The position numbers and the translations under genes are program-made. A stretch of 64,000 nt of DNA from Planktothricoides raciborskii GIHE-MW2 (GTDB lineage Bacteria > Cyanobacteriota > Cyanobacteriia > Cyanobacteriales > Laspinemataceae), in the NCBI RefSeq assembly GCF_040564635.1, contig NZ_CP159837.1:355801-419800 (forward strand). Direction: 5' to 3'. This document shows positions 473-63,210 of the stretch, one piece after another. Position 1 is the first letter of the stretch; each line of letters begins with the position of its first letter. The notes below the pieces were generated by a model that worked only from the letters and a program-made list of their open reading frames with translations, was not told the DNA's origin and made no database searches.

Positions 473-606
473 TTAGATATTGGTTGTTAAATATTGGTTG
501 TTAAATATTAGTTGTTAGATATTGGTTATTAGATATTGGTTATTCGAGAGCAACAACCCCTAATAACCAACAGCCCCTAATAACTAATAACTAACAACCA
601 ATAACA
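470..606. repeat. about 14-bp tandem repeat (ATATTGGTTGTTAA-like, about 5 copies) followed by its inverted complement (AATAACCAAC...)
   Basis: Direct reading; the two halves can form a long imperfect hairpin; related TTGGTTGTTGG/AATAACCAA low-complexity blocks recur at 4196-4256, 44892-44950, 46750-46860 and 59100-59210. Confidence 0.6.
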
Positions 607-609
607 AAA

Positions 610-4046: not shown

Positions 4047-4317
4047 ATCTGAATTATCCCAATTTCTTGACTTTATTTCTTGACTTTGATTTATTTTACG
4101 AGTCTATTCACAAATAGGGAATGTTGGCGGTTGACCGTCCGCAAGTCATAAGGGAACCAATGACCAAGGACTTCCTGGCAAACAACTTTCCAACTTTCCA
4201 ACTTTCCAACAAATAATAAATAATAAATAACAAATAACAAATAACAAATAACATTTTTTCGGGATCGATAGATATTCTTAAATATCGTCAGTTTTGAGAA
4301 AGTTGGCTGTATCTTGA

Positions 4318-5879: not shown

Positions 5880-6480
5880 CCTGTAGGGGCAAACCATGAC
5901 CGCAGATATAGCAATTGTCATAGTTATGAAGTACAAAAAAAAACTGTCATTCCCGCGCGGGAATCCAGAAAAACTCTGTACTTCATTCGGACAATAACCG
6001 CTTTATTTGTCGGTTAAAAAATTAATTTTAATCCGGTCATGCTTTGCCCTGATCTGCGGTGTGTGTTCAAATCCAGAATTAACTGCCGGTCAGGGCGGCG
6101 TTGCATTCGGGTAAAGAATTAACTGTTCAAATCCAGAATTAACTGCCAGAATGCTTCGCCCCTACAACCCCCCTACAACTGTAGGGGCAAAGCATGACCG
6201 CAGATATTTCTTGGTTAACCGATTAATTTTAATACGGTCATGCTTTGCCCTTACCAGCCGTGTGAGTTCCAACCCAGAATTAACGGTCAGGGCGAAGGAT
6301 TCGGGTAAAGAATTAACTGTTCAAATCGAGAATTAACTGCTGGTAAGGGCGGCGTTGCATTCGGGTAAAGAATTAACTGTTCAAATCCAGAATTAACTGC
6401 TGGTAAGGGCGGCGTTGCATTCGGGTAAAGAATTAACTGTTCAAATCCAGAATTAACTGCCCGAATGCTTCGCCCCTACA
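5880..6480. repeat. composite tandem repeat: two copies of an about 300-bp unit, the second containing three copies of a 60-bp subunit (6301-6480); unit 1 carries an about 60-bp mini-MITE at 5926-5990
   Basis: CTGTAGGGGCAAAsCATGACCGCAGATAT starts both units (5880, 6178); GGGTAAAGAATTAACTGTTCAAATCCAGAATTAACTGC subunits are repeated; mini-MITE has 10-bp TIRs ATGAAGTACA / TGTACTTCAT around a GTCATTCCCGCGCGGGAATC core. Confidence 0.7.
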
Positions 6481-9207: not shown

Positions 9208-9239
9208 GGGTTCGGTGGGGTTGGGGTGTAGGGTGTGCG

Positions 9240-9700
9240 GGGTGGTTCTGTAGGGGCGAAGCATTCCGGCAAATGATTTTTGACTGAAACGGAGGATATA
9301 TTACCGGAATGCTTCGCCCTCTGCGGGGTTCAACAATACCAGGGCGAAGCATCCCGGTAATAGGTTGCTGGTTAAGAGCGATAACATATCTGCCGGGATG
9401 CTTCGCCCCTACGGGGTTCATGCCATTATGTAGGGGCGAAGCATGATTGGCAAAGAATCTCTGGGACAAAACCAGCAACCTATTACCCGAATGCTTCGCC
9501 CTCATATTATTTTAGAGGAGAGAAACAGATAATTTTTCCAGCGGTAAGGGCGAAGCATTCCGTAGGGGCGAAGCATTCCGGCAGTCAATTTAATATTCCA
9601 AGCAATAGGTTATCTGCCGGAATGCTTCGCCCGTACATTAATATTTTAAGCAATAATTTATCCGCCGGAATGCTTCGCCCCTACAGGTATTTGTGGTTTA
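9240..9700. repeat. array of about 5 hairpin elements built from inverted copies of (T)GTAGGGGCGAAGCATTCCGG
   Basis: About 10 copies in alternating orientation, arms 45-60 bp apart; same family at 6150-6210, 6465-6480, 54486-54675 and 58800-58870. Confidence 0.75.
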
Positions 9701-9977: not shown

Positions 9978-10190
9978 GCAGAAACCCGGTTTCTAGGTTT
10001 TGGTGGGAGCAAAGAAACCGGGTTTCTGTTTGGCATTCCACAGATAATTGTGATATGTGGAAAAGAAACCCGGTTTCTAGGTTTGGGTGGGGGCAAAGAA
10101 ACCGGGTTTCTGTTTGGCATTCCACAGATAATTGTGATATGTGGAAAAGAAACCCGGTTTCTAGGTTTGGGTGGGTGCGATCGTTTCATT
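9978..10190. repeat. about 2.5 tandem copies of an 83-bp unit, each carrying two AGAAACCCGGTTTCT palindromes
   Basis: Unit boundaries at 9980, 10063 and 10146; lies between the convergent DUF4926 and DUF2281 genes. Confidence 0.8.
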
Positions 10191-36507: not shown

Positions 36508-36790
36508 TGGGGAGCGGGGTGTAGGGTGTAGGGTGTAGGGTGTAGGGAGAAGCCGCCGTCGTGTAGGGTGTAGGGTGTAGGGAGAAGCCGCCGTCGTGTA
36601 GGGTGTAGGGTGTAGGGTGTAGGGAGAAGCCGCCGTCGTGTAGGGTGTGGGGGGAAGAGAGAAAAGAGAATAGAGAAAAGAGAATAGAGAATTTTCCTAT
36701 GCATCCTATGCATCCTATGCATCCTATGCATCCTATGCATCCTCTTCCCCTACACCCTACACCCCCCGCCCCTACCCACCCATAGATTAA
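36508..36790. repeat. complex repeat element: (GGGTGTA)n G-tract heptamers, 3 copies of GAGAAGCCGCCGTCGTGTAGGGTGTAGG, (AGAGAAAAGAGAATAG)x2, (ATGCATCCT)x5, closing with complementary CCCTACACC heptamers
   Basis: Direct reading; the GGGTGTAGGGTGTAGGGTGTAGGG run fits the G3N4G3N4G3N4G3 G-quadruplex consensus; the two ends are inverted complements forming a long hairpin. Confidence 0.75.
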
Positions 36791-44324: not shown

Positions 44325-44891
44325 ATGTTGCATAATTTTTTAAGCAAAATCGAATTACAGCAAGTTATTGAGAAAATCAATCAACGACAGCAAGGAGATG
44401 CGTTTTCCTCTGTGATGGTGGAAAAAGTCTTAGGGGTGGGAAAACCCTGGAAACAATTAAATAAGTCAGAACTTTGTCAAATCCTAGAAGCTTGGGAACA
44501 CCTGTTAGCCAAATGTCCCCAAACTTCTGATTGGAAAACTATTAAAGTCAGCGATCGCCTCTTGTCAGCGACAGGGGATGGTCAACGCTGGGTAGACTAT
44601 TTTGGCTTTCCCTCATTCACCCCAGCGGCAGAGTTTGTTAGGCAAATTTTGCCTGATTGCCAATGGGTGCTGATTCGCAAAAGTGGCAAACGCTTAAATG
44701 CCAGTATCGAGTGCAAAGTCTGGGGCTTATCAGAGGCAAAATACCAAGAACTTGTTGATCAAGAAACAACCAAAAATATTCCATCCATGATTATGGTTTA
44801 TGACGCGGTAAACGGAGGTGAATACCAAACTTATATCAGAACCAATAATCCTGAAGTGGTGGAAAATTTTAAGGATTTAATCCTGAAATAG
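44325..44891 (+). CDS. hypothetical protein
   Basis: 188-aa ORF with plausible codon usage; no recognisable family; immediately followed by complex repeat element A. Confidence 0.5.
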   Translation: MLHNFLSKIELQQVIEKINQRQQGDAFSSVMVEKVLGVGKPWKQLNKSELCQILEAWEHLLAKCPQTSDWKTIKVSDRLLSATGDGQRWVDYFGFPSFTPAAEFVRQILPDCQWVLIRKSGKRLNASIECKVWGLSEAKYQELVDQETTKNIPSMIMVYDAVNGGEYQTYIRTNNPEVVENFKDLILK

Positions 44892-45135
44892 TTATTGGTT
44901 GTTGTTGGTTGGTTGTTGTTGGTTGGTTGTTGTTGGTTGGTTTTTGTTGGTTGGGGAAAGTGAAAAGTCGTAGGGGCGAATGGCCATTCGCCCGTACAAG
45001 TGAAAAGTGATGCATTTCCATGAAATATCACTATTCACTATTCACTATTCACTATTCACTTGTCACTTTTCACTCTCTCCTCTGCTCCTCTGCTCCCTAC
45101 ACCCTACACCCCACACCCCACACCCTATTGGTTGT
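44892..45135. repeat. complex repeat element A: (TTGGTTGTTG)n + 28-bp palindrome GTAGGGGCGAATGGCCATTCGCCCgTAC + (CACTATT)4 + (CTCTGCTC)2 + (CCCTACACC/CCCCACA)n
   Basis: Homologous copy B at 46747-47037 in the same orientation; C-rich heptamers are the complement of a G-quadruplex-capable GGGTGTA array. Confidence 0.8.
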
Positions 45136-45216
45136 TGGTTGTTTGGCTAAACTAATAACTAATAACCAATGCTGAGGGTAATTTTGCTAGAAGCAAAATT
45201 ACCCCAGGTATTATTT

Positions 45217-45687
45217 TTACTTAATTTGTCGAGTATTTGGGGATGCTGCCGACCCATAATTAATTCGACAACCAATATTAAAGATACTCGAACCACACTC
45301 CAGGGGAACCACCTGGTCTTTGAGCATGGCACTACAGCTTACATATTGATCGTTATTGGTATCTTTAATCATACATTCAATCGGTTCAGCCCCCGCACGG
45401 GCTGACCAAGCTTTCATTCCCCAAACTGCCACAAAATGCTGCCAAAAGAAGATGATGAAAAATCCAGCCAATAATACAGAAAGGGCAATGCCAACTTTAA
45501 ACTGCCAACTTTTCAGAATTTCTGTTAACTTCCCCATCAGATTAGCCGATAAGGAAGTGACTGGATTAGTATTTTCTGGATTGGTTGCTTCTGGAGTTTT
45601 ATTTTCCTGATTTTCAGACATTAAGTAGACTCCTTGCCGATAAATTTCGATGACTGGTTTTCCAGGAATAGCCTGAATTTTAGCCAA
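45217..45687 (-). CDS. hypothetical membrane protein with Cys-rich C-terminal tail
   Basis: One strong TM helix (VGIALSVLLAGFFIIFFW); C-terminal region has 4 Cys; start uncertain (Met at 45687 or 45621). Confidence 0.45.
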   Translation of the reverse strand: MAKIQAIPGKPVIEIYRQGVYLMSENQENKTPEATNPENTNPVTSLSANLMGKLTEILKSWQFKVGIALSVLLAGFFIIFFWQHFVAVWGMKAWSARAGAEPIECMIKDTNNDQYVSCSAMLKDQVVPLECGSSIFNIGCRINYGSAASPNTRQIK

Positions 45688-45943
45688 TTACTTAGTCAGT
45701 TTAGCAAAATAGTCCCGCTCTTGGCTGAGGATTTCACAAATTATTAATATGTGATTTAGAATTTTTGCTTTAGATTTGCTTTCGGAAGTCTCTGACAAAA
45801 AAACCCGGTTTGTTCAAAAAAACCGGGGGTTTGGGGATTTCGCTTATGCTAAAAGGCTATAAATCAATTTTTAATCCGGTTTTTGGGGGTTAATCAAGCG
45901 ATCGCGGAAAAAAGACTGAGTTAATCAAAAAATAGGTTCTAGG

Positions 45944-46255
45944 CTAAACCGTGCAAGCAATTTTGCTATGCAGTTCGTTAATAAAGTGTTGAAATTCTCT
46001 TTGTTTTCTGGCATCCGCTTCTTCTTCTAGCCAAGTTTTCACGGAGGAAACTGTATTTTGTATCCGCTCTTTTTCAACTCGAAATTCATCGAGAACTTGG
46101 CTTAAAGTTTCATCGGATAAATGTTCTATCATCACGTTGATATATTCAGCCACCAGTTCTTCTGCTTCATTGTCTTTAACTGGGCCTTCCGCACCTACCG
46201 CATCATGGAATCGGCGGGCTAGACGATTAAATGCTTCGTATGCTTGATGAGACAT
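45944..46255 (-). CDS. hypothetical acidic helical protein
   Basis: 103-aa ORF, predicted all-alpha, no recognisable family. Confidence 0.45.
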   Translation of the reverse strand: MSHQAYEAFNRLARRFHDAVGAEGPVKDNEAEELVAEYINVMIEHLSDETLSQVLDEFRVEKERIQNTVSSVKTWLEEEADARKQREFQHFINELHSKIACTV

Positions 46256-46479
46256 TTGTGATTCTCCTTTAATATATATGCTTTGCCTATACTGTTACTA
46301 TAGCTACAATTTTTTTGTTTGTCAAGATATGATGACATTACTTCATAATCAATCCCCAGGGGATGAAATCGCAGTAAAATAAACGTTGTTGGTGATTGGT
46401 GATTTGTGATTTGCAGTTCAGCCAAATTCTTAATCACCAGTCATCAATCACTAAACACCAATAAAAAACGGAGGAAACG

Positions 46480-46746
46480 ATGCCAAGTCCAATTATGTAT
46501 GAAGCGGAAGAAACTTTTGTGGTTCTAGACCCGAACCTGTTGGAAGAAGAATTTATGACTGGGGAGGAACTTTTGATTAAGTTAAAACAAATTTTATCCC
46601 AGACTCCTGTGGATGAATTAACCCCAGATATCAGAAAATATAGCTCCCTTGATGAGCAAGCGAAATATTTACTTACCACCGGCTGTGAGTTGCAAATGGC
46701 ACCAGGAAAAACTCTGCAATGGTATGTAGTGCGATTGGAAAAATAG
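46480..46746 (+). CDS. hypothetical small protein
   Basis: 88-aa ORF preceded by GTGATTGGTGATTTGTGATTTG / ATCACCAGTCATCAATCAC inverted repeats and directly followed by repeat element B. Confidence 0.45.
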   Translation: MPSPIMYEAEETFVVLDPNLLEEEFMTGEELLIKLKQILSQTPVDELTPDIRKYSSLDEQAKYLLTTGCELQMAPGKTLQWYVVRLEK

Positions 46747-47037
46747 CTTAATTTTTGTTGTTGGTTGGTTGTTGTTTGTTGGGTAGGGATTCTTTGGTTG
46801 TTGTTGGTTGTTGGTTGGTTGTTGGGTAGGGATTCTTTGGTTGTTGGTTGTTGGTTGGTTGTTGGGGAAAGAGGAAAGTTGTAGGGGCGAATGGCCATTC
46901 GCCCCTACAAGTGAAAATAAGTATCACTATTCACTATTCACTATTCACTTTCCCCTCTGCCCCTCTGCCCCCCTGCACCCCTACACCCTACACCCCACAC
47001 CCTACACCCTACACCCTACACCCTCTCTTCCCTGGTT
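46747..47037. repeat. complex repeat element B (second copy of element A, with expanded TTGGTTGTTGG block)
   Basis: Shares the GTAGGGGCGAATGGCCATTCGCCCCTAC palindrome, CACTATT triplet, CTCTGCCC pair and CCCTACACC heptamer array with element A. Confidence 0.8.
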
Positions 47038-47587
47038 AATTTTTGGGCTGGGTAATCAGGGCTACATCTATTCTATCTTTTTTCGGTTGGGTAATTTCAG
47101 CCCGGATTCCTGGCCCAAAAAACTTTTCGATTTTTTCCCGTTTTTCTTGCCAGGTTTCTAGGGTAAATTTGGGTGAGTCAAATTCTAAAATTAACCCATA
47201 GTTGTCATCAATTTCTATTTCCCGTAATGCCGCCAGTACCGGACGTTCTTTGTCGTTAGGATTTAAGCCAAATCGCTGTAATGAATCATCCAAGTGAGCA
47301 TCTTGACCGTAACGATACCGGGTCACGTCTTTGCGGATTTGATTTTGAATTTCCGTGGCCATTTTTTGACGCAATGCCAGGACTTTCTCGGAGGTTGGTT
47401 GACTAAATGGGACGGGTTTGAGTTCGGCAGATTTGAGGGCTAAACCTCCGAGTAATAAGGGAATGCCATAAAAAAATCCGGCTAGGTTTAAGGTGGCATA
47501 GTCGGCAAAGTAAGCCGCAAATCCCACTACGGTGAGGATACCGCCAATGACTAAACCGACAGAACTGAGAGAGATTTTACCAAACAT
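47036..47587 (-). CDS. conserved cyanobacterial membrane protein (two N-terminal TM helices + soluble C-terminal domain; possibly DUF2854)
   Basis: MFGKISLSSVGLVIGGILTVVGFAAYFADYATLNLAGFFYGIPLLLGGLAL... then a charged soluble domain; family name from memory. Confidence 0.5.
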   Translation of the reverse strand: MFGKISLSSVGLVIGGILTVVGFAAYFADYATLNLAGFFYGIPLLLGGLALKSAELKPVPFSQPTSEKVLALRQKMATEIQNQIRKDVTRYRYGQDAHLDDSLQRFGLNPNDKERPVLAALREIEIDDNYGLILEFDSPKFTLETWQEKREKIEKFFGPGIRAEITQPKKDRIDVALITQPKN

Positions 47588-54485: not shown

Positions 54486-54675
54486 ATCTCCAGTAGGGGC
54501 GAAGCATTCGCGGATATATCTCCCGGATAAACAGAAAAATTATCTATATACGCGAATGCTTCGCCCAATATATTTCTGCTTTTATATAATTCTGTAAGGG
54601 CGAAGCATGACCGGATAAAATTTCGGCTTTTAACCAATAATTTACCTGCGGTCATGCTTCGCCCTTACCCAAGTG
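54486..54675. repeat. three hairpin elements of the GTAGGGGCGAAGCAT(T/G)(C/A)C(G)G family
   Basis: Inverted pairs GTAGGGGCGAAGCATTCGCGG...CGCGAATGCTTCGCCC and GTAAGGGCGAAGCATGACCGG...GGTCATGCTTCGCCCTTAC. Confidence 0.75.
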
Positions 54676-56640: not shown

Positions 56641-58710
56641 CTAAAGCCATCCTCTAATCTCACTTTCGGTCAGGGTGCGCTCAATTTTTATATATTCACT
56701 TTTCGTCGCTTCTAAAATATGTTTCATCATCACAGGTTCCCCGGCTTCAGCGGCTAAAAATGCCGCATTTATGGCAATATTGCGGATATTTCCTCCGGCT
56801 ACATTCAGTTTGGCTAACTTCTTAAACGCTAATCCTTCCGTTGGGGTTTTTTCGGGGAAAATGCGCTGCCAAATTTCTCCCCGTTGATTGATATCTGGGA
56901 AAGGAAATTGCACCACAAATCTAATCCGGCGCAAAAATGCTTGGTCAATGGAATTTTTTAAGTTAGTGGTGAGAATGGCTAAACCCCGATAGGCTTCCAT
57001 GCGCTGCAAGAGATAGCCCACTTCAATATTGGCATAGCGATCGTGACTATCTTTAACATCAGACCTTTTGCCAAATAAAGCATCAGCTTCATCAAATAAT
57101 AATATCGCGCCGCCCCCTTCAGCAGCATCAAAAACCCGCCGCAAGTTTTTCTCGGTTTCGCCAATATATTTACTGACAATTGAACTTAAATCAATTCGAT
57201 AAAGGTCGAGTTGTAATTGTTTGGCTAAAATTTCCGCTGCCATTGTTTTTCCCGTGCCACTAGACCCGGCAAATAAGGCACTAATGCCTAAGCCTCGGCC
57301 ACTTTTGTCCCCAAAACCCCATTGTTCATAAACTTTTACTCGTTGTTTGACTTGGGCGTAGCATTCTTGCAAAACTTGTTTCTCTTTTTCCGGCAAAATT
57401 AAGTCATCCCAAGTGGCGTTTGTGTCGATGCGTTGGGCTAATTCATCCATTTTTAATCGGGCTTGAAGGCGACAAGTTTGCCACAGTTGATGATGAATTT
57501 TTTCCTGAAGTTCTGTAGTTTCTGTAGGTTCAGTTTGGGCAAAATTTTCGGGTTGACTTGTTTGATATATGTTTTGATTGATTTGATGATTTTCTAGTTT
57601 TTGATTGATGATTCCTTTGGCTTGCAAACAAGCAGAATTAATCGCCGAAGGACTGAGGTTAAAATGGGCGACTAAAGATTCAATATGGCCATTGAGTTGA
57701 GTGGCCATATCACCCAAGGCATTTTGCCAAACTATGCGTTGTTCGCGGGCTGTGGGATGAGTGACTTCTAGGGTAATTAGGGGGCGTTGCCGTTGGGTGC
57801 GCCGATCGCGACTACTGACTATTAAAGGACATTTAATCGTATCAATAAAACGGGCTACGGTTGCCTCTCTCCATGCTTCATTACTTTCTAAGTGGTCGCA
57901 GTCGAGAAATATGGCACTTTTATTTAAAATATATTCGCGATCGCACAAACTTTTCAGTAAATTTTGTTGGGTTTGATCCGCTGGTAAAGCATCTGCTGAC
58001 ATCACCAATAAATTTAGGCCAAGGTCTGCACAAGCTTTAGCCGCGATCGCCTGTTTACTAGCCGGTTCCATCCCACATAATTGTAACACTGGAAAGCGGC
58101 CAAATTCGGCATAACTTTGCCCCCAACTAGCGACAATTTCTTGCGCCAACTCTTGATGAGACGAAACCAACAGTAGGGGCGAAATGCCGTTCTCCCCTAC
58201 CTCAACATAAAACTCTGGACTTAAAGGTTCAACAATGCCATGCAAGCGTTCATCTAAATAATTAACCCCCACCAAATAATGTAAAATTCGCTCATCAATT
58301 CGCAGGGGACTCGTGGCCAAAGTTCTGGCCACACCCACTTCAATTAATCGCCATTTTCGCAGGGGATTTATCGGACTCAGAGCATCCCAATGTCCCCCCG
58401 GAAATATGGCCAAAGCTAAACTAAAAGTCGGATAAATTTTTTGCTCATTATGTTGGGCTTGGGCACAAAGTCCGGCAAATTGAGCATCAAATTCTACCGC
58501 CGCACATAATACTAATAAATCCCTTTCAAAAGGGGAAAGTTGGAAAGATTTACAGACCGTTTCTAACGCCGTCGGTTGGCTGAACTGGCTAGGAGGCAAA
58601 GTCGGCAATTTAACTTGACCAGGATTCTGGTTAATCATTAGTTCTAATGCCTCTTGCACCCGCGCGATCGCACCCATCAAATACTTTTGATTTTCTTCTT
58701 GCCAGTTCAT
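56641..58710 (-). CDS. AAA+ ATPase of contractile-injection-system type (Afp15/Pvc15-like)
   Basis: C-terminal AAA module (GLGISALFAGSSGTGKTMAAEILA...ILLFDEADALFGKR...LLQRMEAYRGLAILTTN) preceded by a 450-aa N-terminal region; last gene of the tail-like cluster. Confidence 0.75.
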   Translation of the reverse strand: MNWQEENQKYLMGAIARVQEALELMINQNPGQVKLPTLPPSQFSQPTALETVCKSFQLSPFERDLLVLCAAVEFDAQFAGLCAQAQHNEQKIYPTFSLALAIFPGGHWDALSPINPLRKWRLIEVGVARTLATSPLRIDERILHYLVGVNYLDERLHGIVEPLSPEFYVEVGENGISPLLLVSSHQELAQEIVASWGQSYAEFGRFPVLQLCGMEPASKQAIAAKACADLGLNLLVMSADALPADQTQQNLLKSLCDREYILNKSAIFLDCDHLESNEAWREATVARFIDTIKCPLIVSSRDRRTQRQRPLITLEVTHPTAREQRIVWQNALGDMATQLNGHIESLVAHFNLSPSAINSACLQAKGIINQKLENHQINQNIYQTSQPENFAQTEPTETTELQEKIHHQLWQTCRLQARLKMDELAQRIDTNATWDDLILPEKEKQVLQECYAQVKQRVKVYEQWGFGDKSGRGLGISALFAGSSGTGKTMAAEILAKQLQLDLYRIDLSSIVSKYIGETEKNLRRVFDAAEGGGAILLFDEADALFGKRSDVKDSHDRYANIEVGYLLQRMEAYRGLAILTTNLKNSIDQAFLRRIRFVVQFPFPDINQRGEIWQRIFPEKTPTEGLAFKKLAKLNVAGGNIRNIAINAAFLAAEAGEPVMMKHILEATKSEYIKIERTLTESEIRGWL

Positions 58711-58871
58711 AATAATTCCCGATTATTCCCGATTATTCCCGGTACTATCTTACAGCGGTTTTAAGATTAATTAACCATAAATTTTCTTAGGGGCAATCCG
58801 ATGGCGGTGGTTGCCCCTACACTACCGGAATGCTTCGCCCCTACAATGCCGGAATGCTTCGCCCCTAAAGT

Positions 58872-59090
58872 CTAAGTTGATTTCAGCAAATCCTCTAAAT
58901 ACTTTTCCGCCTCTTCTGGAGTCAGCAGCAGTTCTTGATCTTTTCTCAGAATTTCATACTTTCCGCCCCGATAACCATGCCCAATAATCAGCTTCGCTTT
59001 AACTGCCTCATTCCCCAACTTATGCAACCGATTATAACTCAGGGTTTCCATCTCTCTTTCTAATTGTTGTCTCAATTCTTCTTCATTCAT
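58872..59090 (-). CDS. small hypothetical protein (72 aa) between the cap and ATPase genes
   Basis: ORF with a charged N-terminal helix and GHGYRGGKYEILRK segment; no recognisable family. Confidence 0.35.
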   Translation of the reverse strand: MNEEELRQQLEREMETLSYNRLHKLGNEAVKAKLIIGHGYRGGKYEILRKDQELLLTPEEAEKYLEDLLKST

Positions 59091-59201
59091 CGCTTTAATT
59101 CCTTACTTTTGTTATTGGTTATTTGTTGTTAGTTATTAGTTATTTGTTAGGCAAATTTAAGTCAACTAACCACTAACAAATAACCAATAACATATAACAA
59201 T

Positions 59202-60542
59202 TTAGCGGACTAAAATCCTCGGCTCTTTATACCATTGAAATGTCTTACTATTCGGGTCTGTATCCACAGTCAGAAGACTTTCCGCCCCATCAATTTGCAA
59301 CCGCACCAAATATTCCCCTGGTTTAACATTTTCCACCGGAATTGCGATCGTATTTTGATTGGTGCGCCGGACTGGGGCATCAAACAAATAAGCATTGGGA
59401 TTTTCGATGGATTTCTCATTTAAAATTAGCACCACCCGCTGCTTTTTGCCCACAGTCAAATTCACCCGCACTTTGATTTGGGCCGATCGCGTTGGTTCTT
59501 CCCGACCCTGCAAATTAGAAACCGTAGCTTTCAGAACTGTGGGACGCAAAACAAACGGCGCGGCATTCGACTCCAAAGACTGATACGATTTATTGTCTGG
59601 GGAATGATACAAATTTGTCGCCGCTTGTTCACCCTCGGTCGCTGCCGCACCATAGACCGGAATTACATTTAGACGTTGTGTAATCCGATGAATCACCTGT
59701 AAACTTTGCACCCCAGGCATCAAGACATCATCGGGTACTGAACTCAAGGGTAAAATAATCTGATTTTCCGTCACCTCCTGGGGGGTGAGTTCCAATTCCC
59801 CAATGCGGACTAGGGTAGTGGAAGCTTTCAGATTTCTCCCTTGAATTAATAAGGTACTATCTTTAAGAATGGGTTCCCCCGGCCCGACTCGAGAAATCAC
59901 CCGATCCACTATCGGGGAATAACCAAACGGCACCGCTGCCAGCCCGCGAAGACGCACCGGCAAAGCTTTTTTGCTGACTTGTTCCCCTTCCAAAATCACC
60001 ACGCTGGCTTTATAAGCTAAGGATAAAGCGTAGGGAGTTTGGAAAAATACCGACCAAATTTTTGATAAATCTTCCAAAGATAAATTCAGCGGCGTGAAGA
60101 TAATTTGCTCCACCTGTTGATCTAAGTCAGAACTGGCTAAATAAGGAAAAGTTTCATCGGCAATGGTTTCTAGGATAGAGTCTTTATCCAAAATCGCGCG
60201 ATCGTTCAACGCCCGAATCACACTCCCCATGATCCGTTGCGGTTCCAGATCCATATCATTGCCGTAGAAACTAATCAGATAATTCAAATCCCAAGCGGTG
60301 CGGTTTTGCTTACTATCTCTGCTGGTCTGCGATCGCGATCGCGCATCTGCATTCTTTTGCCAAATTGGATTTGGCGTCGTTTGATACAAATACAGATTCA
60401 CACCGCGTTCGGGGGTCGCACTGCCTGCATTCGCTGGTCGAGCCATTGTCACCCTGGTGCCATCGATGTCAATTTGAATCGCCTCCTGCAAAACTCGCTG
60501 CAAAGCGGCGGTGACAGTCGGAATGGCTAAATAATTACTCAT
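59202..60542 (-). CDS. DUF4255-family protein (Afp16/Pvc16-like tail terminator/cap of contractile injection systems)
   Basis: N-terminus MSNYLAIPTVTAALQRVLQEAI... and overall beta-rich 446-aa pattern match the DUF4255 family found in eCIS loci. Confidence 0.7.
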   Translation of the reverse strand: MSNYLAIPTVTAALQRVLQEAIQIDIDGTRVTMARPANAGSATPERGVNLYLYQTTPNPIWQKNADARSRSQTSRDSKQNRTAWDLNYLISFYGNDMDLEPQRIMGSVIRALNDRAILDKDSILETIADETFPYLASSDLDQQVEQIIFTPLNLSLEDLSKIWSVFFQTPYALSLAYKASVVILEGEQVSKKALPVRLRGLAAVPFGYSPIVDRVISRVGPGEPILKDSTLLIQGRNLKASTTLVRIGELELTPQEVTENQIILPLSSVPDDVLMPGVQSLQVIHRITQRLNVIPVYGAAATEGEQAATNLYHSPDNKSYQSLESNAAPFVLRPTVLKATVSNLQGREEPTRSAQIKVRVNLTVGKKQRVVLILNEKSIENPNAYLFDAPVRRTNQNTIAIPVENVKPGEYLVRLQIDGAESLLTVDTDPNSKTFQWYKEPRILVR

Positions 60543-60595
60543 AATTATCTACGGATATCGGCGGATACTTTTCATCTAATTCTAAGGGTAAATTA

Positions 60596-61051
60596 TCATT
60601 TATGCAGTTGGGAAATCAACTGCACCCAGCGCGATCGCTCGGAATGTTCCAAACTTAAAATATCATCTAAAGACCAATGAAAATAAAAAGCAATCAAAGC
60701 TACCTCTTGGTATAATTGCTCCAAGGGGTAGCCGAAAACTTTCCCACCCGACACCACATCCAAAGGCTGGTGAATCTGAGCAAAAAAGTCCCGCAAATAG
60801 AGGAGATCGATTAAAAAAAGCTGTTCCAACATTTCGGGAGTCACCACCGATAAATGCCCGAAATCATCAATTAACCGGGACAACATCACCAACATCGCAT
60901 AAGCTGGATTTTGCCTAACTTGGGGATGCTTTTGCACATAAATTTCATCCTCACCCGTAGCGAGTCGCATCATCCCGACTTGATGAATACTTCCCTCTGC
61001 ATCCAAAAATCCCTTGGGCAGGGTAAACTCAAATATTGTCGAATTCCTCAT
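60596..61051 (-). CDS. hypothetical protein, paralog A of a tandem pair (151 aa)
   Basis: Shares FEFTLPKG(F/Y)LD.EG..H..G.MRLA...EI......P.V..NPAYA..(L/V).(M/I)LSR.I...G.L..V.P.M.E.LF..DL.YL..F..QI with the neighbouring gene. Confidence 0.55.
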   Translation of the reverse strand: MRNSTIFEFTLPKGFLDAEGSIHQVGMMRLATGEDEIYVQKHPQVRQNPAYAMLVMLSRLIDDFGHLSVVTPEMLEQLFLIDLLYLRDFFAQIHQPLDVVSGGKVFGYPLEQLYQEVALIAFYFHWSLDDILSLEHSERSRWVQLISQLHK

Positions 61052-61120
61052 ACCAAAACATATATAATACTTAACTATAATACTTAACTATAATACTTGA
61101 CTATAATGCTTAACTGAATC

Positions 61121-61495
61121 TTACTGAAATTCCGTCATCATCCTGCCCATTTCTGGATTTTCTTCAGGGGGGGAAGCGGGGGAAATAAACTCTGGGTCTG
61201 GGGGTTCCAACTCATTAATCTGGCGATAAAACTTTTGTAAATAATTCAAATCAACCGCAAACAGATTTTCCATCATCATCGGACTGACTGACTCCAATGC
61301 CCCCAGACGGGTAATCACCCGCGATAAAATCAGAATCGTCGCATAAGCGGGATTAGATTTCACTCGCGGATCCCGCAAAGGAACAATCTCATCGATCGCC
61401 CTTGCCAAACGCATCACCCCTTTGCGGTGGAGGTTGCCCTCTTCATCCAAATATCCCTTGGGCAAAGTAAACTCAAACTCCGTTTGAATCATCAT
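61121..61495 (-). CDS. hypothetical protein, paralog B of a tandem pair (124 aa)
   Basis: About 45% identical to paralog A; no recognisable family. Confidence 0.55.
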   Translation of the reverse strand: MMIQTEFEFTLPKGYLDEEGNLHRKGVMRLARAIDEIVPLRDPRVKSNPAYATILILSRVITRLGALESVSPMMMENLFAVDLNYLQKFYRQINELEPPDPEFISPASPPEENPEMGRMMTEFQ

Positions 61496-61516
61496 AAGAT
61501 CGCCAATATATATTTT

Positions 61517-61999
61517 TTATAATTTTACTCTTTTTAGCTCTTCCACTGCCACTTCCATTTCTTCAATTTCAAACTCTCCAGAAGTGACAGCCAGGTCAGA
61601 AATCGTATAACTGACTGGCCAAGCATTTTTAAATTCTAATCTAAACTGCGCTTGAGCCCCTTGGTCATAAATCACTAAAGACCCATCCTTTCTTTTCTCC
61701 CCCCACTTCCCTTCTTGTACGGCTTGTAACCAATTCCATAGGGTCATCGAACAAGTCAGCCCTCGACGCAATATTAGATTATTATATTTCACATTGCCAG
61801 GGATTTTTGTAGTCACCACTAAGCCTTTTTTAGATTTGCCCCACTTTTGCGGCGTCACCTCAGTGGCTTCGATAATATCCTGAGTCACTTTAAAGCCGCT
61901 ACATTCCATAAAATAGCCATCCACTGACTCATCGCTGCCATCAAGTTTCAGTTCTAAAAAAAAGCGACATTTGGCTAAAACTTCGGGAAATTTGCCCAC
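61517..61999 (-). CDS. phage T4 gp19-family tail tube protein (CIS tube paralog 3)
   Basis: ...VDGYFMECSGFKVTQDIIE...KIPGNVKYNNLILRRG...LWNWLQ...KDGSLVIYDQ...NAWPVSYTISDLAVTSGEFEIEEMEVAVEEL follows the PF06841-type tube pattern. Confidence 0.8.
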   Translation of the reverse strand: MGKFPEVLAKCRFFLELKLDGSDESVDGYFMECSGFKVTQDIIEATEVTPQKWGKSKKGLVVTTKIPGNVKYNNLILRRGLTCSMTLWNWLQAVQEGKWGEKRKDGSLVIYDQGAQAQFRLEFKNAWPVSYTISDLAVTSGEFEIEEMEVAVEELKRVKL

Positions 62000-62171
62000 G
62001 GTTATATCCTTATTTTGCTCTAATTTAATTTGCTTAAATTTGCTTAAATTTCCTTTAATTTTCTTTAATTTTTTTTAATTTTATTAAATCTTCTTAAATA
62101 TCGATCTCCCGTAGGGACACGGCAATGCCGTGTCCCTAAAAATAAAAGGTAATTTATATCAGAAACAATCA

Positions 62172-62657
62172 CTATTTCTTACGCATCAAATATTCATAAG
62201 CAAAGGTGACGGTTTCTGTCAGGGATTGGTTGCCTGCTGCATCAAAGTCTGACATGGCATAAGTCATAGGCATCACCCCTTTAAATTCCCACTGGGCTGA
62301 CTCGGTGCCATCTTGTTTAAAAACTGTAATGGTTGCAACTTGATTTTTTCCTTTGGTTTTGGTTGCCCCACCCACATCAGGGGTCGAATGGGAATCATAA
62401 AACCAATCAGAAACGGCTTTGGGGTTTTTACTAGAGGTAATAAATTTGATCGTGATATCGTGGGATTCTACGGCGGAAGGAGCGGCTTGTCGGTTAACTT
62501 TACTCCCCTTAGTCACCCCCAATGGCCCATCAGATTGAGTCACCGGAATGGTCAATTTCAAGCCAGAAACAGATTCGACTAAGAGACCCTCATCGAGATT
62601 ATCTGCTTTAAATTGAAACCTAGCCTGGGATAGCGGTTCGCCTACGGTATCTGGCAT
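62172..62657 (-). CDS. tail tube protein (CIS tube paralog 2, Afp1/Afp5-like)
   Basis: 161 aa with the tube-family pattern (F.FK.D......ESVSGL.L.I......ITIKFITSSKN...SDWFYDS....NQVATITVFKQDGTESAQWEFKGVMPMTYAMSDFDA...ETVTFAYEYL). Confidence 0.75.
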   Translation of the reverse strand: MPDTVGEPLSQARFQFKADNLDEGLLVESVSGLKLTIPVTQSDGPLGVTKGSKVNRQAAPSAVESHDITIKFITSSKNPKAVSDWFYDSHSTPDVGGATKTKGKNQVATITVFKQDGTESAQWEFKGVMPMTYAMSDFDAAGNQSLTETVTFAYEYLMRKK

Positions 62658-62736
62658 TGTATTTCTCCTAATATTGAGTGTATGCGGCGTTATTGAATCA
62701 TGTTACTGAGCGCCAATTCCGATCTATCTTGTTTTT

Positions 62737-63210
62737 TTAACTTTGTTTGCGCTCAACGCTTTCTACATTCAGGGTGAATGTTTCCGTTAAAAAGTCTTGA
62801 CCGCCAACATTAAATTCAGAAACTTCATAACCTACCATCTGACATTGTTTCAGGTTGTAGGTGATGACTAATTTAGCGTCGGCATCAAAGATTTCTATGG
62901 AACCATCGGTAAAACATTGACTCCATTTGCCATCGCCGCCATAAGTGGCTGGCATCCCTTTTTTGAAGAGGTCAAATAGTTTTTTATTCTTATCTTCAAT
63001 AACGGCGGTAATGGTGACATCTTGGTTGTTGTAGTACCCAGTTGAAGTGGTGTTTCTGGTCATCTGGGCTTTGGCTGTAGAGGCGATCGGCTTACCGTGA
63101 CCAGCGGTTTTGGCTTGAATATTAATGCCGCTAACTTTCAAGAGTGGATACTCGGTGCCACCATATTTAAATGAAAACCTGTTAGAAGAAATAGTAAGCA
63201 GGTCTGCCAT
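62737..63210 (-). CDS. tail tube protein (CIS tube paralog 1)
   Basis: 157 aa; ...YPLLKVSGINIQAK...VTITAVIEDKN..LFDLFKK...GSIEIFDADAKLVITYNLKQCQMVGYEVSEFNVGGQDFLTETFTLNVESVE tube-family pattern. Confidence 0.75.
   Translation of the reverse strand: MADLLTISSNRFSFKYGGTEYPLLKVSGINIQAKTAGHGKPIASTAKAQMTRNTTSTGYYNNQDVTITAVIEDKNKKLFDLFKKGMPATYGGDGKWSQCFTDGSIEIFDADAKLVITYNLKQCQMVGYEVSEFNVGGQDFLTETFTLNVESVERKQS

Follow-up and report, generated by a model that had tools for sequence, protein, structure and literature searches.

Genes and repeat elements at the locus

The 64-kb window, that is, the whole stretch of DNA that was analysed, belongs to a Planktothricoides genome and contains two composite repeat elements, A and B, which lie between convergent genes (Table 1). 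The 188-aa protein encoded upstream of element A has twenty homologues, all unannotated and restricted to a narrow Oscillatoriales group, and it is encoded identically in Planktothricoides sp. SR001 (LIUQ01; PMC5460452). No Pfam, NCBIfam or PADLOC match was found for this protein and its AlphaFold model (pLDDT 83.9) gave no significant Foldseek match in the PDB. Most assemblies call the small membrane protein gene as 134 aa (from 45621) and some as 156 aa; the product has no Pfam or PADLOC match, and the gene was observed in the related lineages L129, L134 and L135 and is missing from L131. For the 103-aa protein only 4 cluster representatives were found at E <= 1e-3 among 1.84 billion proteins, with no family or fold match, and its gene adjoins the 188-aa gene even in L131, a 66% relative. 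The 88-aa protein is CRR7, which is a conserved family of cyanobacteria and plastids. A preliminary description had treated the three enclosed small ORFs as having no known function and the genes as candidates for a lineage-specific role. The former applies to the 134/156-aa and 103-aa proteins and the latter to two or three of the genes (the 188-aa and 103-aa proteins have few, narrowly distributed homologues), but neither applies to the 88-aa ORF, which Pfam identifies as the widely conserved CRR7.

Table 1. Coordinates of genes, repeat modules and predicted structures in the 64-kb window.
Feature	Position	Strand	Description
188-aa hypothetical protein gene	44325..44891	+	TAG stop abuts element A
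Element A	44892-45172		between 188-aa gene (+) and 134/156-aa gene (-), convergent
Left T/G-rich array of A	44892..44952		14-nt unit TTGGTTGTTGTTGG made of two heptamers, 4.3 copies
Core block of A	44953..45127		missing in L129, L134 and L135
A core module GGGGAAAGTGAAAAGTC	44953-44969		
A palindrome GTAGGGGCGAATGGCCATTCGCCCGTAC	44970..44997		28 bp, GTAC variant, one stem mismatch
A core GTGAAAA/ATGCATTTCCATGAAATA spacer	44998-45027		
A core (TCACTAT)6.7	45028-45074		
A core (CTCTGCTC)3	45073-45096		
A core (CCCTACA)4.7	45095-45127		
Right remnant of the TTGGTTG array of A, then CTAATAA units	45126..45172		
Hairpin GGGTAATTTTGC-loop-GCAAAATTACCC, then ATTATTTTTA	45176..45204	+	conserved
Small membrane, Cys-containing hypothetical protein gene (134/156 aa)	45217..45687	-	
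103-aa acidic helical hypothetical protein gene	45944..46255	-	
CRR7 gene (88 aa)	46480..46746	+	PF12095, E = 1.8e-28, full-length match
Element B	46747-47035		between CRR7 gene (+) and DUF2854 gene (-), convergent
T/G-rich array of B	46755..46866		TTGTTGG/TTGGTTG heptamers in a 43-nt higher-order unit, 2.7 copies, with GGGTAGGGATTC
Core of B	46864..46957		GGGGAAAGAGGAAAGTT, palindrome, AAGTGAAAATAAGTA, (TCACTAT)3.7, then CACTTTCCCC
B palindrome GTAGGGGCGAATGGCCATTCGCCCCTAC	46881..46908		28 bp, perfect
(CCCCTCTG)3 and (CCCTACA)6.6 arrays of B	46950..47024	-	
DUF2854 gene (183 aa)	47036..47587	-	PF11016, E = 5.6e-67; convergent with CRR7
Period-7/14 arrays of A and B	44891-44954, 45028-45074, 45095-45127, 46755-46857, 46924-46949, 46979-47024		
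Third repeat-filled convergent spacer	36508..36790		between queC (+) and 2294-aa kinase gene (-); (GGGTGTA)n in 35/42/77-nt higher-order units, GAATAGA, (TCCTATGCA)5.4, then CCCTACACCC
Intergenic regions with heptamer arrays	459-605, 4208-4253, 36517-36692, elements A and B, 46385-46460, 59108-59200		
Predicted G4 motifs	46952-47032, 45095-45125, 36747-36781	-	
Predicted G4 motifs	36509-36547, 36601-36624	+	

That A and B are homologous composite repeats in direct orientation, as first described, was confirmed by a 78-nt segment, a gapped alignment and an array scan. The 78-nt segment is the top ungapped match (88% identity, copies 1911 bp apart) and includes an exact stretch of 24 nt, while the gapped alignment showed 78% mean column identity and an identical order of modules. 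Both elements are built of tandem heptamer and octamer arrays of TTGGTTG-type, GTGAAAA, TCACTAT, CTCTGCyC and CCCTACA units, and a 28-bp palindrome, GTAGGGGCGAATGGCCATTCGCCC(C/G)TAC, sits within the arrays of each. The copy numbers of the 14-nt, TCACTAT, octamer (about 3 copies each) and CCCTACA arrays in Table 1 were obtained with Tandem Repeats Finder. The boundaries needed some revision. Element A does start at a stop codon (TAG, 44889-44891) but the array of B begins 9 nt past its TAG (46744-46746), and A does not end at 45135 but reaches about 45172 through a second TTGGTTG block. Each element lies 3' of a plus-strand gene, as reported, but fills the gap between two convergent genes and is not merely downstream of one. 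In eight same-species assemblies both elements were present and nearly unchanged; these assemblies are independent and the elements are therefore not assembly artefacts. The differences observed among them, one TCACTAT unit (L126) and one extra CCCCTCTG unit (L122), are steps of 7 and 8 nt, which fits slippage in unit number and rules out coding.

In the core of B two heptamer arrays form an imperfect inverted pair, whose outer arms are GGGGAAAG.G and CACTTTCCCC. The palindrome of B is predicted to form a hairpin of -24.7 kcal/mol on the plus strand and -23.6 kcal/mol on the minus strand (z = -6.3); on the minus strand CTTTCCTCTT comes next and the hairpin scores as terminator-like. The corresponding RNA hairpin of A has -17.9 kcal/mol (z = -3.3). 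On the minus strand the octamer and CCCTACA arrays of B form an 81-nt run of G3+ tracts located 4 nt past the DUF2854 stop; these arrays are missing in L134 and L135. Downstream of A, the hairpin at 45176..45204 (-23.8 kcal/mol, z = -5.7) is followed on the plus strand by a good U-rich tail and is kept in L129, L134 and L135, with a longer and changed stem in L129. This hairpin probably serves the 188-aa gene as an intrinsic terminator. Among strains its 5-nt loop is inverted, being TAGAA in some assemblies and TTCTA in others.

Heptamer arrays were found in at least seven intergenic regions of the window. One of these, the spacer after queC, had been regarded as a third related element. It shares the CCCTACA/GGGTGTA heptamer, mostly in the opposite orientation, but the rest of the resemblance was not recovered, as palindrome, TTGGTTG array and TCACTAT array are all missing from positions 36508-36790. 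The spacer is G-rich on the sense strand of both flanking genes, and its repeats are missing in the sister lineage L129, where the spacer has 71 bp.

Comparison with related lineages

Three colinear relatives, L129, L134 and L135, encode 188-aa proteins with 85%, 87% and 91% identity respectively. The order 188-aa, 134/156-aa, 103-aa and CRR7 is maintained in all three, and DUF2854 follows in L134 and probably in L135, which is cut off at a contig end. The palindrome, the CCCTACA arrays and the entire A core are missing in these lineages. Their A spacer holds only TTGGTTG-type arrays and the conserved hairpin. An array equivalent to the left array of A stands directly after the stop codon in all three and overlaps the stop in Phormidium (L132); judged from this distribution, the left array is ancestral. 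The right TTGGTTG remnant of A joins the left array without a break in the relatives, and global alignment with L129 placed a single long gap at the A core with TTGGTTG repeats on both sides.

The B spacer of the relatives contains the T/G-rich array, again in L129, L134 and L135, together with a core of the form GGGGAAAG(TGAAAAG)n...(CACTATT)n without the palindrome, and the B core, palindrome excepted, is likewise ancestral. The empty palindrome site in element B of L134 reads GGGGAAAGTGAAAAGT joined directly to GAAAAGTGATGCATTTCCATGAAATA, and window A carries the same flanks with CGTAGGGGCGAATGGCCATTCGCCCGTACAAGT in between. The ancestral segment GTGATGCATTTCCATGAAATA is kept in window A and lost from window B, which suggests that A is a copy of an older B. 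As the same gene order is found in relatives without the palindrome, the CCCTACA arrays and the A core, the genes were evidently in place before the repeats became similar.

The 28-bp palindrome

The 22-nt core of the palindrome occurs exactly twice in the window (44973 and 46884) whereas 100 dinucleotide-preserving shuffles gave an expectation of none. The 28-mer was observed in at least 120 loci with unrelated flanks, at least a dozen of them in the Okeania SIO2C9 assembly. Its hosts belong to many cyanobacterial genera (Oscillatoriales, Pleurocapsales and Leptolyngbya-like taxa) and to some Chloroflexota and Planctomycetota. The palindrome starts with GTA in 118 of 128 sites, followed by G, and ends with CTAC in 73, GTAC in 26 and TTAC in 15 of them. 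The G of the tag is paired in CTAC copies and unpaired or wobble-paired in the GTAC/TTAC variants (41/128), and GTAG is base-paired in 57% of the copies. RRAGTC heptamers flank the GTAC subfamily across genera, as they do in window A. A heptamer array adjoins 11% of palindrome sites as against 2.8% of control positions, and both window palindromes interrupt a GTGAAAA/AAAAGTT array. Most of the 128 sampled copies and both window copies are singletons, the exception being a 6-copy head-to-tail array in Tychonema (L033).

The palindrome has also been inserted elsewhere. Orthologous empty sites were found in L129, L134 and L135 and five paralogous filled/empty pairs in other genera; paralogous repeats with versus without the palindrome are L038 versus L078 and L115, L110 versus L098 and L058 versus L085, and further L112 versus L078 and L094 versus L029. 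Only 19% of palindrome sites lie inside an ORF of at least 200 aa, compared with 66% of control positions, and 26 intergenic sites lie between convergent and 10 between divergent genes (control gaps, 90 versus 85). In other genomes the in-frame 28-mer encodes VGANGHSPL or RGEWPFAPT within IleRS-, AlaRS-, ValRS-, PFOR- and TnpB-like ORFs, whose identity was judged by flanking sequence. A tblastn search of the window and 132 loci (about 1.1 Mb) with E. coli RayT gave a best E of 1.5, for a sequence resembling hemC, and when 150 ORFs lying no more than 1.2 kb from a palindrome were scanned with Pfam, no Y1_Tnp turned up among the families matched by at least two members. Overall, the palindrome behaves like a tiny mobile element, of the REP or small-dispersed-repeat type.

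Origin of the elements

We think it probable that A and B share a history and were built by slippage arrays, insertion of the palindrome and secondary copying. In the order of events that we infer, replication slippage would first have produced tandem heptamer and octamer arrays of the STRR type, and the old part of B, common to the relatives, would have consisted of a TTGKTTG array followed by an inverted pair in which (GTGAAAA)n faces (TCACTAT)n. The GTAG-tagged palindrome would then have been inserted once into the GTGAAAA array of this ancestral B, with the addition of about 33 nt and possibly a duplication of AAGT, and the CCCTACA array would have grown in the lineage bearing the palindrome. 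Among enzymes that could move the palindrome, the leading candidate is a RAYT-like HUH transposase that works in trans, although none was found in the window or the sampled loci. Finally, about 180-250 bp of B, from the array through CCCTACA, would have been copied over a distance of 1.9 kb into the TTGGTTG array that follows the 188-aa gene, and B would have lost about 15 nt afterwards. The copying probably proceeded by ectopic gene conversion or by template switching, with the TTGGTTG arrays common to both sites as the primer, but at the right junction of the A core no homology was found that would explain simple gene conversion. A dispersed family of composites may also exist, or a third copy may have been the source; metagenome scans and two spurious-ORF protein searches for composite copies elsewhere gave no match. 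The T/G-rich and G-rich arrays are strictly oriented relative to stop codons, which pure slippage leaves unexplained and which hints at selection or a transcription-linked process.

The preliminary description had also raised the alternative that recombination between the direct repeats mobilises or duplicates the 1.9-kb gene set which they enclose; deletion of this set was considered here as well. With direct copies 1911 bp apart and 24 nt of exact identity, a rare RecA-mediated deletion is physically possible, but the arrangement is intact in 8/8 same-species assemblies, without deletion or duplication variants between A and B, and the genes at 45.2-46.7 kb are kept in identical order in the three related lineages, which lack the repeat similarity. 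The enclosed set includes the conserved CRR7, and no integrase, transposase or att-like feature was observed at the locus. This proposal is thus very hard to sustain, and A and B are non-coding spacers between convergent genes rather than the ends of a mobile cassette. It is somewhat easier, but still unlikely, that A and B are two insertions of a MITE-like non-autonomous transposon, corresponding either to the whole composite or to a core GGGGAAAGTG...CACTTTCCCC bounded by imperfect terminal inverted repeats, in which case further genomic copies are expected. The core with its outer inverted arms folds as a long imperfect hairpin (A plus strand, z = -4.3), and the A core is a discrete block that interrupts the TTGGTTG array and is missing in relatives. 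Furthermore, MITE-like repeats of Okeania and Dapis hold internal heptamer arrays and copies of the same palindrome, and in L135 a further insert, which has terminal inverted repeats and is about 85 bp long, lies inside the CACTATT array. However, the block copied into A exceeds the inverted arms and takes in the CTCTGC and CCCTACA arrays, and no evident target-site duplication was seen at its ends. The B core occupies one and the same orthologous site in four lineages and is therefore old and immobile there, while TCACTAT arrays were found nowhere else in the window or in about 130 retrieved loci beyond the A and B sites.

A different question is whether the elements act at the 3' ends of transcripts. 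As A lies upstream of the conserved terminator-like hairpin it is probably transcribed, and both elements are likely to be transcribed as 3' UTRs. Their U/G-rich tracts, strong hairpin and G-quadruplex-prone tracts follow the stop codons on the sense strand and so may influence termination or mRNA 3'-end stability; such a role is plausible, given a consistent strand bias with respect to stop codons. A stronger proposal is that the elements are selected modules that end or stabilise convergent transcripts and prevent read-through collisions by means of the U/G-rich arrays, the strong hairpin and G-quadruplex-forming (GGGUGUA)n on the sense strand. Cyanobacteria are not known to possess Rho. All T/G-rich GTTATTGGTTGTT-type arrays in the window are on the sense strand and no more than about 10 nt from a stop codon (188-aa, CRR7, GSHPx at 610 and Pvc16-like at 59202). 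Eight predicted G4 motifs, defined by at least 4 G3+ tracts with loops of 1-7 nt, were found in the window against 0.54 expected, and 6/8 are on the sense strand of a gene, in its 3' flank (WD40 at 9207, queC, the kinase, DUF2854 and the 134-aa gene). Even in Phormidium, where the protein is 47% identical, the 188-aa family retains its post-stop array, and the palindrome hairpin is stable and terminator-like on the B minus strand. G-rich heptamers near stops on the sense strand have been reported in Nostoc and Xanthomonas (PMC4692102), and heptamer repeats altered reporter expression in Nostoc (bioRxiv 10.1101/2022.06.06.494920). Against this, close relatives keep the genes without the palindrome, the CCCTACA arrays, the A core and the entire queC array. 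The region has 4 terminator-like sites versus 4.1 in shuffles, and only one of the four palindrome strand/copy combinations passes the scan (B minus strand, tail CTTTCCTCTT), the plus-strand hairpins being followed by AAGUGAAAA, which is A-rich and not U-rich. The whole-B plus-strand fold is no more stable than shuffles (z = -0.33), and another heptamer array of the window is in a divergent promoter region (4183-4253). The elements thus do not appear to be necessary for termination or 3'-end stability, and selection as modules of this kind is possible but rather doubtful, so that slippage, palindrome insertion and copying are still preferred as the account of their origin.

Comparison with known repeat systems

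Short tandemly repeated repetitive (STRR) heptamers were reportedly described in filamentous cyanobacteria by Mazel et al. in 1990. The arrays of A and B resemble them in their head-to-tail 7-nt units, the placement of different heptamers side by side, the many dispersed and mainly intergenic loci in the 64-kb window and the strain-variable number of units. However, no array of at least 2 units of STRR1 (CCCCAGT), STRR2 (TTGGTCA) or STRR3 (CAACAGT) was found in any rotation on either strand, and the TTGGTTG unit of A and B differs from STRR2 at two positions. The term STRR is used in PMC4748335 and PMC2670836. The present host also differs in being a non-heterocystous member of the Oscillatoriales, and its arrays occur in inverted pairs and in higher-order units of 14, 43 and 77 nt.

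The small dispersed repeats SDR1-8 of Nostocaceae (21-27 nt) are said by Elhai et al. in 2008 (Genome Res 18:1484) to occur in tandem heptamer arrays and mini-transposons, with insertion polymorphisms that reportedly point to recent mobility. Compared by description, the palindrome is likewise a short unit in the range of about 21-28 nt, occurs within heptamer arrays and mini-transposons and shows filled and empty sites. The description of SDRs is partly from PMC5861425. The palindrome differs in its 28-nt length and in its spread far outside Nostocaceae, and this much wider range argues against simple SDR membership.

GTAG-tagged REPs and RAYT transposases are reported to have been described by Nunvar in 2010. 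The palindrome resembles these REPs, being a GC-rich palindrome within the 20-40-bp range that starts with GTAG, is multi-copy (2 copies in the window) and lies mostly outside genes, with an excess between convergent ones and occasional copies inside genes. Its phylum range also matches, as GTAG-tagged REPs were found in Cyanobacteria, Chloroflexi and the PVC group, mostly where the ORFs on either side are convergent or unidirectional (Di Nocera 2013; PMC3733652). In contrast to canonical REPs, whose tag is unpaired, the palindrome is symmetric with GTAG mostly paired with CTAC, and the identical 28-mer is found across orders and phyla whereas REPs are usually species-specific. Its copies are singletons and not inverted doublets like REPINs, which are mobilised by RAYT transposases (Bertels and Rainey 2011; PMC3116915), and no RAYT was found near any sampled copy.

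Two further systems share single features with the elements. Rickettsia palindromic elements (RPE), reportedly described by Ogata et al. in 2000, are small palindromic repeats able to sit in frame within protein genes, as the 28-mer does in other genomes, but RPEs have about 100-150 bp, the palindrome is much shorter and neither window copy is intragenic. RPEs are mentioned in PMC3733652. G-quadruplex-forming heptamers, GGGGA(C/T)T and GGGAATC, were described in Nostoc and Xanthomonas by Rehm et al. 2015 (PMC4692102). The unit found here, GGGTGTA, differs from them in sequence, is predicted to form a quadruplex and belongs to a larger composite with a palindrome, but both consist of G3-4 heptamers in intergenic arrays of at least 4 units that lie on the sense strand near stop codons and vary in length among relatives.

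Structure of the two composite repeats

The preliminary description of two direct composite repeats, elements A and B, was confirmed by the sequence, by a repeat finder and by alignment. The repeat finder paired 44929-45006 with 46840-46917 (family D8) as direct copies of 78 nt with 88% identity located 1911 bp apart, and a gapped alignment of 44885-45165 with 46740-47045 gave a mean column identity of 78% with the order of the modules being identical. The palindrome core was found exactly twice in the window, where shuffled sequences give an expectation of 0 copies, and the junctions within the composite read GAAAGTNGTAGGGG and CCCNTACAAGTGAAAA. In the composite core two heptamer arrays face each other as an imperfect inverted pair; (AAAAGTG)n and (CACTATT)n can pair at 6 of 7 positions, and the outer arms are GGGGAAAGTG and CACTTTCCCC. 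Inverted array pairs were also observed in the window spacers 459-605, 59108-59200 and 46385-46460. The last of these, in the 5' region of the CRR7 gene, holds inverted TGGTGAT and ATCACCA heptamer-like arrays and a leader hairpin is possible there.

For the palindrome, folding energies of -24.7 (B) and -17.9 kcal/mol (A) were obtained. As whole elements, the plus strand of A (z = -4.3) and the minus strand of B (z = -2.75) were more stable than shuffles, while the plus strand of B showed no extra stability over them (z = -0.33). Rfam at gathering thresholds gave no match across the whole window, and protein searches for more copies with spurious ORFs translated from the elements gave no useful match. 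Two scans of a metagenome collection for the palindrome-array junctions also gave no match, and these contigs are evidently absent from that collection. The elements were also considered as CRISPR arrays, a reading rejected on account of the short units and identical intervening sequences.

Coordinates of arrays, hairpins, motifs and palindrome copies (window positions, or positions in fetched loci where an L-number is given)
Feature	Position (strand)	Detail
Element A arrays (Tandem Repeats Finder)		14-nt TTGGTTGTTGTTGG x4.3; TCACTAT x6.7; CTCTGCTC x3.1; CCCTACA x4.7
Element B arrays (Tandem Repeats Finder)		43-nt higher-order T/G-rich unit x2.7; TCACTAT x3.7; CCCCTCTG x3.1; CCCTACA x6.6
Larger hairpins with palindrome termini	6155-6480; 9253-9690; 54496-54670; 58813-58867	Often clustered or tandem
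T/G-rich GTTATTGGTTGTT-type array	551-609 (-)	GSHPx gene
T/G-rich array, same type	44892-44952 (+)	188-aa gene
T/G-rich array, same type	46755-46866 (+)	CRR7 gene
T/G-rich array, same type	59163-59200 (-)	Pvc16_N gene
Sense-strand G-quadruplex motif	9207-9242 (+)	
Sense-strand G-quadruplex motif	36509-36624 (+)	
Sense-strand G-quadruplex motif	36747-36781 (-)	
Sense-strand G-quadruplex motif	46952-47032 (-)	
Sense-strand G-quadruplex motif	45095-45125 (-)	
In-frame 28-mer	L018:3885-3912	
In-frame 28-mer	L035:899-926	
In-frame 28-mer	L113:2094-2121	
In-frame 28-mer	L089:3300-3327	
In-frame 28-mer	L003:1646-1673	
In-frame 28-mer	L012; L059; L053	
Palindrome in TnpB (IS605 OrfB) gene	L039:6046-6073	Zinc-ribbon region
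Palindrome in TnpB (IS605 OrfB) gene	L023:1531-1558	Zinc-ribbon region
Palindrome in TnpB (IS605 OrfB) gene	L037; L069; L078	Zinc-ribbon region

Genes at the locus

Both elements fill gaps between convergent genes, A with the 188-aa (+) and 134/156-aa (-) genes at its sides and B with the 88-aa (+) and 183-aa (-) genes. The 183-aa protein is DUF2854 (E = 5.6e-67, Pfam). Three small ORFs of unknown function had been placed between the repeats. One of them, of 88 aa, matches CRR7 over its full length (PF12095, E = 1.8e-28). No family in Pfam, NCBIfam or PADLOC takes in the 188-, 134- or 103-aa protein, and sequence searches of the PDB gave no match for the 188- or the 103-aa protein. Detectable relatives number 20 for the 188-aa family, and a search of 1.84 billion proteins yielded four cluster representatives for the 103-aa family. 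The confident AlphaFold model of the 188-aa protein (44325-44891; pLDDT 83.9) places a helical part at the N-terminus ahead of an alpha/beta domain, and its fold may be undescribed since Foldseek found no match to this model in the PDB at E <= 0.001.

Convergent genes, queC and that of a 2294-aa kinase, likewise enclose the array at 36508-36790. This array had been described as a third, related element; the relation is limited to the GGGTGTA/CCCTACA heptamer, which is all that it has in common with A and B.

Conservation and origin of the elements

Relatives of the locus were found via homologues of the 188-aa protein (L135, 91% identity; L134, 87%; L129/L130, 85%). The order of the 188-aa, 134/156-aa, 103-aa and CRR7 genes is kept in all three related lineages, and L134 further shows the DUF2854, SLH protein and aldehyde dehydrogenase genes. 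The repeats had been suspected of mobilising or duplicating the genes between them by recombination. Because synteny holds in the relatives this reading is refuted, and no lineage-specific or mobile gene cassette is present here. Synteny is lost in the more distant relatives: in L131 (66%) neither a 134-aa gene nor CRR7 is found nearby, and in L132 (Phormidium nigroviride, 47%) a GTTGTTA/GTTGTTG array still overlaps the stop codon. The queC array is missing in L129, where the spacer is 71 bp.

In spacer A of the relatives, TTGGTTG/TTGTTTG-type arrays are all that precedes a conserved hairpin, and in a global alignment with L129 positions 44953-45127 form a single long gap that breaks the TTGGTTG-type array. 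To judge from this alignment, the core of element A is an insertion. Spacer B of the relatives holds a T/G-rich array, GGGGAAAG(TGAAAAG)n, then (CACTATT)3-4, which is preceded by GTGATGCATTTCCATGAAATA in L134 and L135, and CACTCTCTCCCC; the 28-bp palindrome and the CCCTACA array are absent. The empty site in spacer B of L134 reads GGGGAAAGTGAAAAGT joined directly to GAAAAGTGATGCATTTCCATGAAATACCACTATT, while the filled site in element A reads GGGGAAAGTGAAAAGT, the inserted CGTAGGGGCGAATGGCCATTCGCCCGTACAAGT, then GAAAAGTGATGCATTTCCATGAAATATCACTATT. The difference of 33 nt comprises the 28-mer, C and AAGT, the last possibly a target duplication.

The palindromes in A and B occupy an equivalent position in the array, and the simplest reading would be that the palindrome was inserted once and copied afterwards. 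In addition, GTGATGCATTTCCATGAAATA is retained in A and in spacer B of the relatives and is missing from B of the window, from which it appears that the A core is a copy of an older B-type sequence set into the TTGGTTG array of spacer A. Spacer build-up would have proceeded from old heptamer arrays through insertion of the 28-bp palindrome and array expansion to ectopic copying of the composite. The locus offers a clean natural series over four related lineages for the build-up of cyanobacterial spacers.

Both elements are present in eight independent assemblies or metagenome contigs encoding an identical 188-aa protein, and this agreement excludes an assembly artefact. One of the eight, LIUQ01, is the accession of Planktothricoides sp. 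SR001 (PMC5460452), which places the window in that species group. Within the species the elements differ only by one TCACTAT unit (L126), by one CCCCTCTG unit with scattered substitutions (L122, a low-coverage contig) and by one base substitution that several assemblies share in the last CCCTACA unit. The changes in unit number are slippage steps, and since steps of 7 and 8 nt break any reading frame, a coding reading of the elements was rejected.

Two further differences were observed between loci. In the hairpin GGGTAATTTTGC-loop-GCAAAATTACCC the 5-nt loop (45188-45192) is TAGAA in the window, L121, L122, L125 and L127 and its reverse complement, TTCTA, in L123, L124, L126 and L128; this is a small within-species inversion polymorphism mediated by the hairpin arms. 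In L135 (5497-5570) the CACTATT array of element B is split by a different insert of ~70-85 bp, MITE-like in appearance, with terminal inverted repeats AAGCTGTTA...TAACAGCTT.

Possible role at 3' ends

The elements as 3'-UTR modules form a reasonable secondary hypothesis. A scan for terminators passed the B palindrome on its minus strand only, and sites of this kind were as numerous as shuffles predict. A likelier terminator of the 188-aa gene is the hairpin at 45176-45204, which is conserved in 4/4 lineages and followed by a T-run on the plus strand, and element A would then belong to the 3' UTR of this gene. The relatives manage without the palindrome, without CCCTACA arrays and without the A core, so that all three are dispensable.

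In four unrelated genes a T/G-rich array follows the stop codon at a distance of at most ~10 nt, each time on the sense strand (4/4). Furthermore, eight predicted G-quadruplex motifs (at least four tracts of three or more G, loops of 1-7 nt) were found in the window against 0.54 expected from shuffles. Six of the eight are sense-strand motifs in a gene's 3' flank, and five start 0-10 nt past the stop, as seen in four genes, the WD40 gene, queC, the kinase gene and DUF2854. Similar strand and stop-codon findings were made for GGGGA(C/T)T repeats in Nostoc (PMC4692102). This strand bias argues for a role in the 3' UTR or for an origin linked to transcription. Such strictly sense-strand T/G-rich and G-quadruplex-prone arrays after stops would bear on how cyanobacterial transcripts end; cyanobacteria are not known to possess Rho.

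Related palindromes in the window

Many larger hairpins share the termini of the palindrome, with GTAGGGGCGAAGCATTCCGG, a loop of ~30 nt and CCGGAATGCTTCGCCCCTAC. A degenerate 28-nt palindrome, GTAGGGGCGAAATGCCGTTCTCCCCTAC, was observed at 58176-58203 inside a 689-aa AAA-ATPase ORF (56641-58710, minus strand) and is a possible in-frame intragenic copy. This ORF lies in a minus-strand gene run (56641-63210). Among the products of the run are a Pvc16_N-domain protein and a winged-helix AAA ATPase, which point to a cluster for a contractile injection system (PVC/eCIS-like). A second short palindrome, AGAAACCCGGTTTCT, occurs at 9980-10175 in an 84-nt tandem repeat of 2.3 copies, at 45804-45827 as a terminator-like hairpin after the 103-aa gene, and next to heptamer arrays in other Oscillatoriales (L050, L132).

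Spread and insertion behaviour of the palindrome

A scan for the 21-nt palindrome core in one genome per species gave at least 120 loci, all of them in genomes other than Planktothricoides. Among the matches listed, the cyanobacterial hosts include Okeania, Dapis, Tychonema, Symploca, Caldora, Thainema, Dolichospermum, Anabaena, Xenococcus, Hydrococcus, Myxosarcina, Waterburya and others. Non-cyanobacterial contigs with a GC of 0.58-0.64 and without HIP1 sites represent Chloroflexota, Caldilineaceae, Dehalococcoidia, Anaerolineae and a ValRS-like-bearing bacterium; contigs labelled Planctomycetota and Scalindua have lower GC and likewise no HIP1 sites.

Among the matches listed, the site flanks are mutually unrelated, the unit boundaries are sharp, 118 of 128 sites start with GTA and the 128 3' ends include CTAC (73), GTAC (26) and TTAC (15). 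A tandem heptamer array adjoins 11% of the listed sites compared with 2.8% of control positions in a strict test. The palindrome prefers RRAGTC/AAAAGT-type heptamer arrays, and in the GTAC subfamily, to which the copy in A belongs, a left flank of RRAGTC(A) and a right flank of ARRAGT are typical across genera. Five pairs of paralogous repeats are distinguished only by whether a heptamer array carries the palindrome.

The copies among the matches listed are mostly extragenic and were found in 26 convergent and 10 divergent gaps, compared with 90 and 85 for all gaps. About one sixth of the listed copies lie in frame within long ORFs and encode VGANGHSPL(Q/H/P) or RGEWPFAPT. By flanking protein sequence the hosts are IleRS-, AlaRS-, ValRS-, PFOR-, NRPS/PKS- and histidine kinase-like, the ValRS-like host being on a non-cyanobacterial contig (GC 0.61), and one is a PDDEXK_2 nuclease (Pfam). 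The palindrome can be retained in frame within essential genes, those for aminoacyl-tRNA synthetases and PFOR. Pfam also confirmed PDDEXK_2 nuclease and TnpB (OrfB_IS605) among neighbouring ORFs. TnpB homologues were found in 14 of the 120 palindrome loci listed, with no TnpA next to TnpB in those loci, and the TnpB genes that host the palindrome are of diverged lineages. IS605-family elements could carry the palindrome between genomes.

In Tychonema bourrellyi (L033:3722-3977) six head-to-tail palindromes are separated by an identical 19-nt spacer with a period of 47 nt; this run is a tandem amplification and not a CRISPR array. L050 and L115, each with two palindromes ~1.87 kb apart, were considered as orthologues or REPtrons and rejected as unrelated loci; they hold apparent toxin-antitoxin genes and a RecQ-like gene.

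We put forward, as a doubtful proposal, that the 28-nt GTAGGGGCGAATGGCCATTCGCCCCTAC is an undescribed mobile element of exceptionally small size whose host range is unusually broad. If so, the composites in the window would record the arrival of the palindrome in Planktothricoides followed by a segmental copy. The occurrence of an identical palindrome across cyanobacterial orders and other phyla, with no visible transposase, bears on how the smallest mobile DNAs move. For the locus, a false lead is removed.

Comparison with known repeat systems

A tblastn search with E. coli RayT gave no credible match, the weak match in L014 being hemC-like. Pfam found no Y1 transposase in window ORFs beside large hairpins, nor in families with at least two members among 150 ORFs near palindromes, and a crude motif scan found no TnpA-like candidate in ORFs beside TnpB genes. 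No RAYT was found in the window or in the ~1.1 Mb around sampled copies, which is a weak test because RAYT usually occurs once per genome. A full-text literature search for the palindrome and related strings returned no paper.

The behaviour of the palindrome matches that of the small dispersed repeats (SDR) of Nostoc, which Elhai et al. in 2008 reportedly observed to lie frequently inside tandem heptamers or mini-transposons. According to PMC5861425, no SDRs were found beyond the Nostocaceae. The behaviour also matches that of GTAG-tagged REPs, which are reported from Cyanobacteria, Chloroflexi and the PVC group; most of them lie between ORFs that are convergent or unidirectional, and some within genes (PMC3733652). 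Elements A and B are composed of known kinds of repeat, STRR-like heptamer arrays joined with a REP/SDR-like mini-palindrome.
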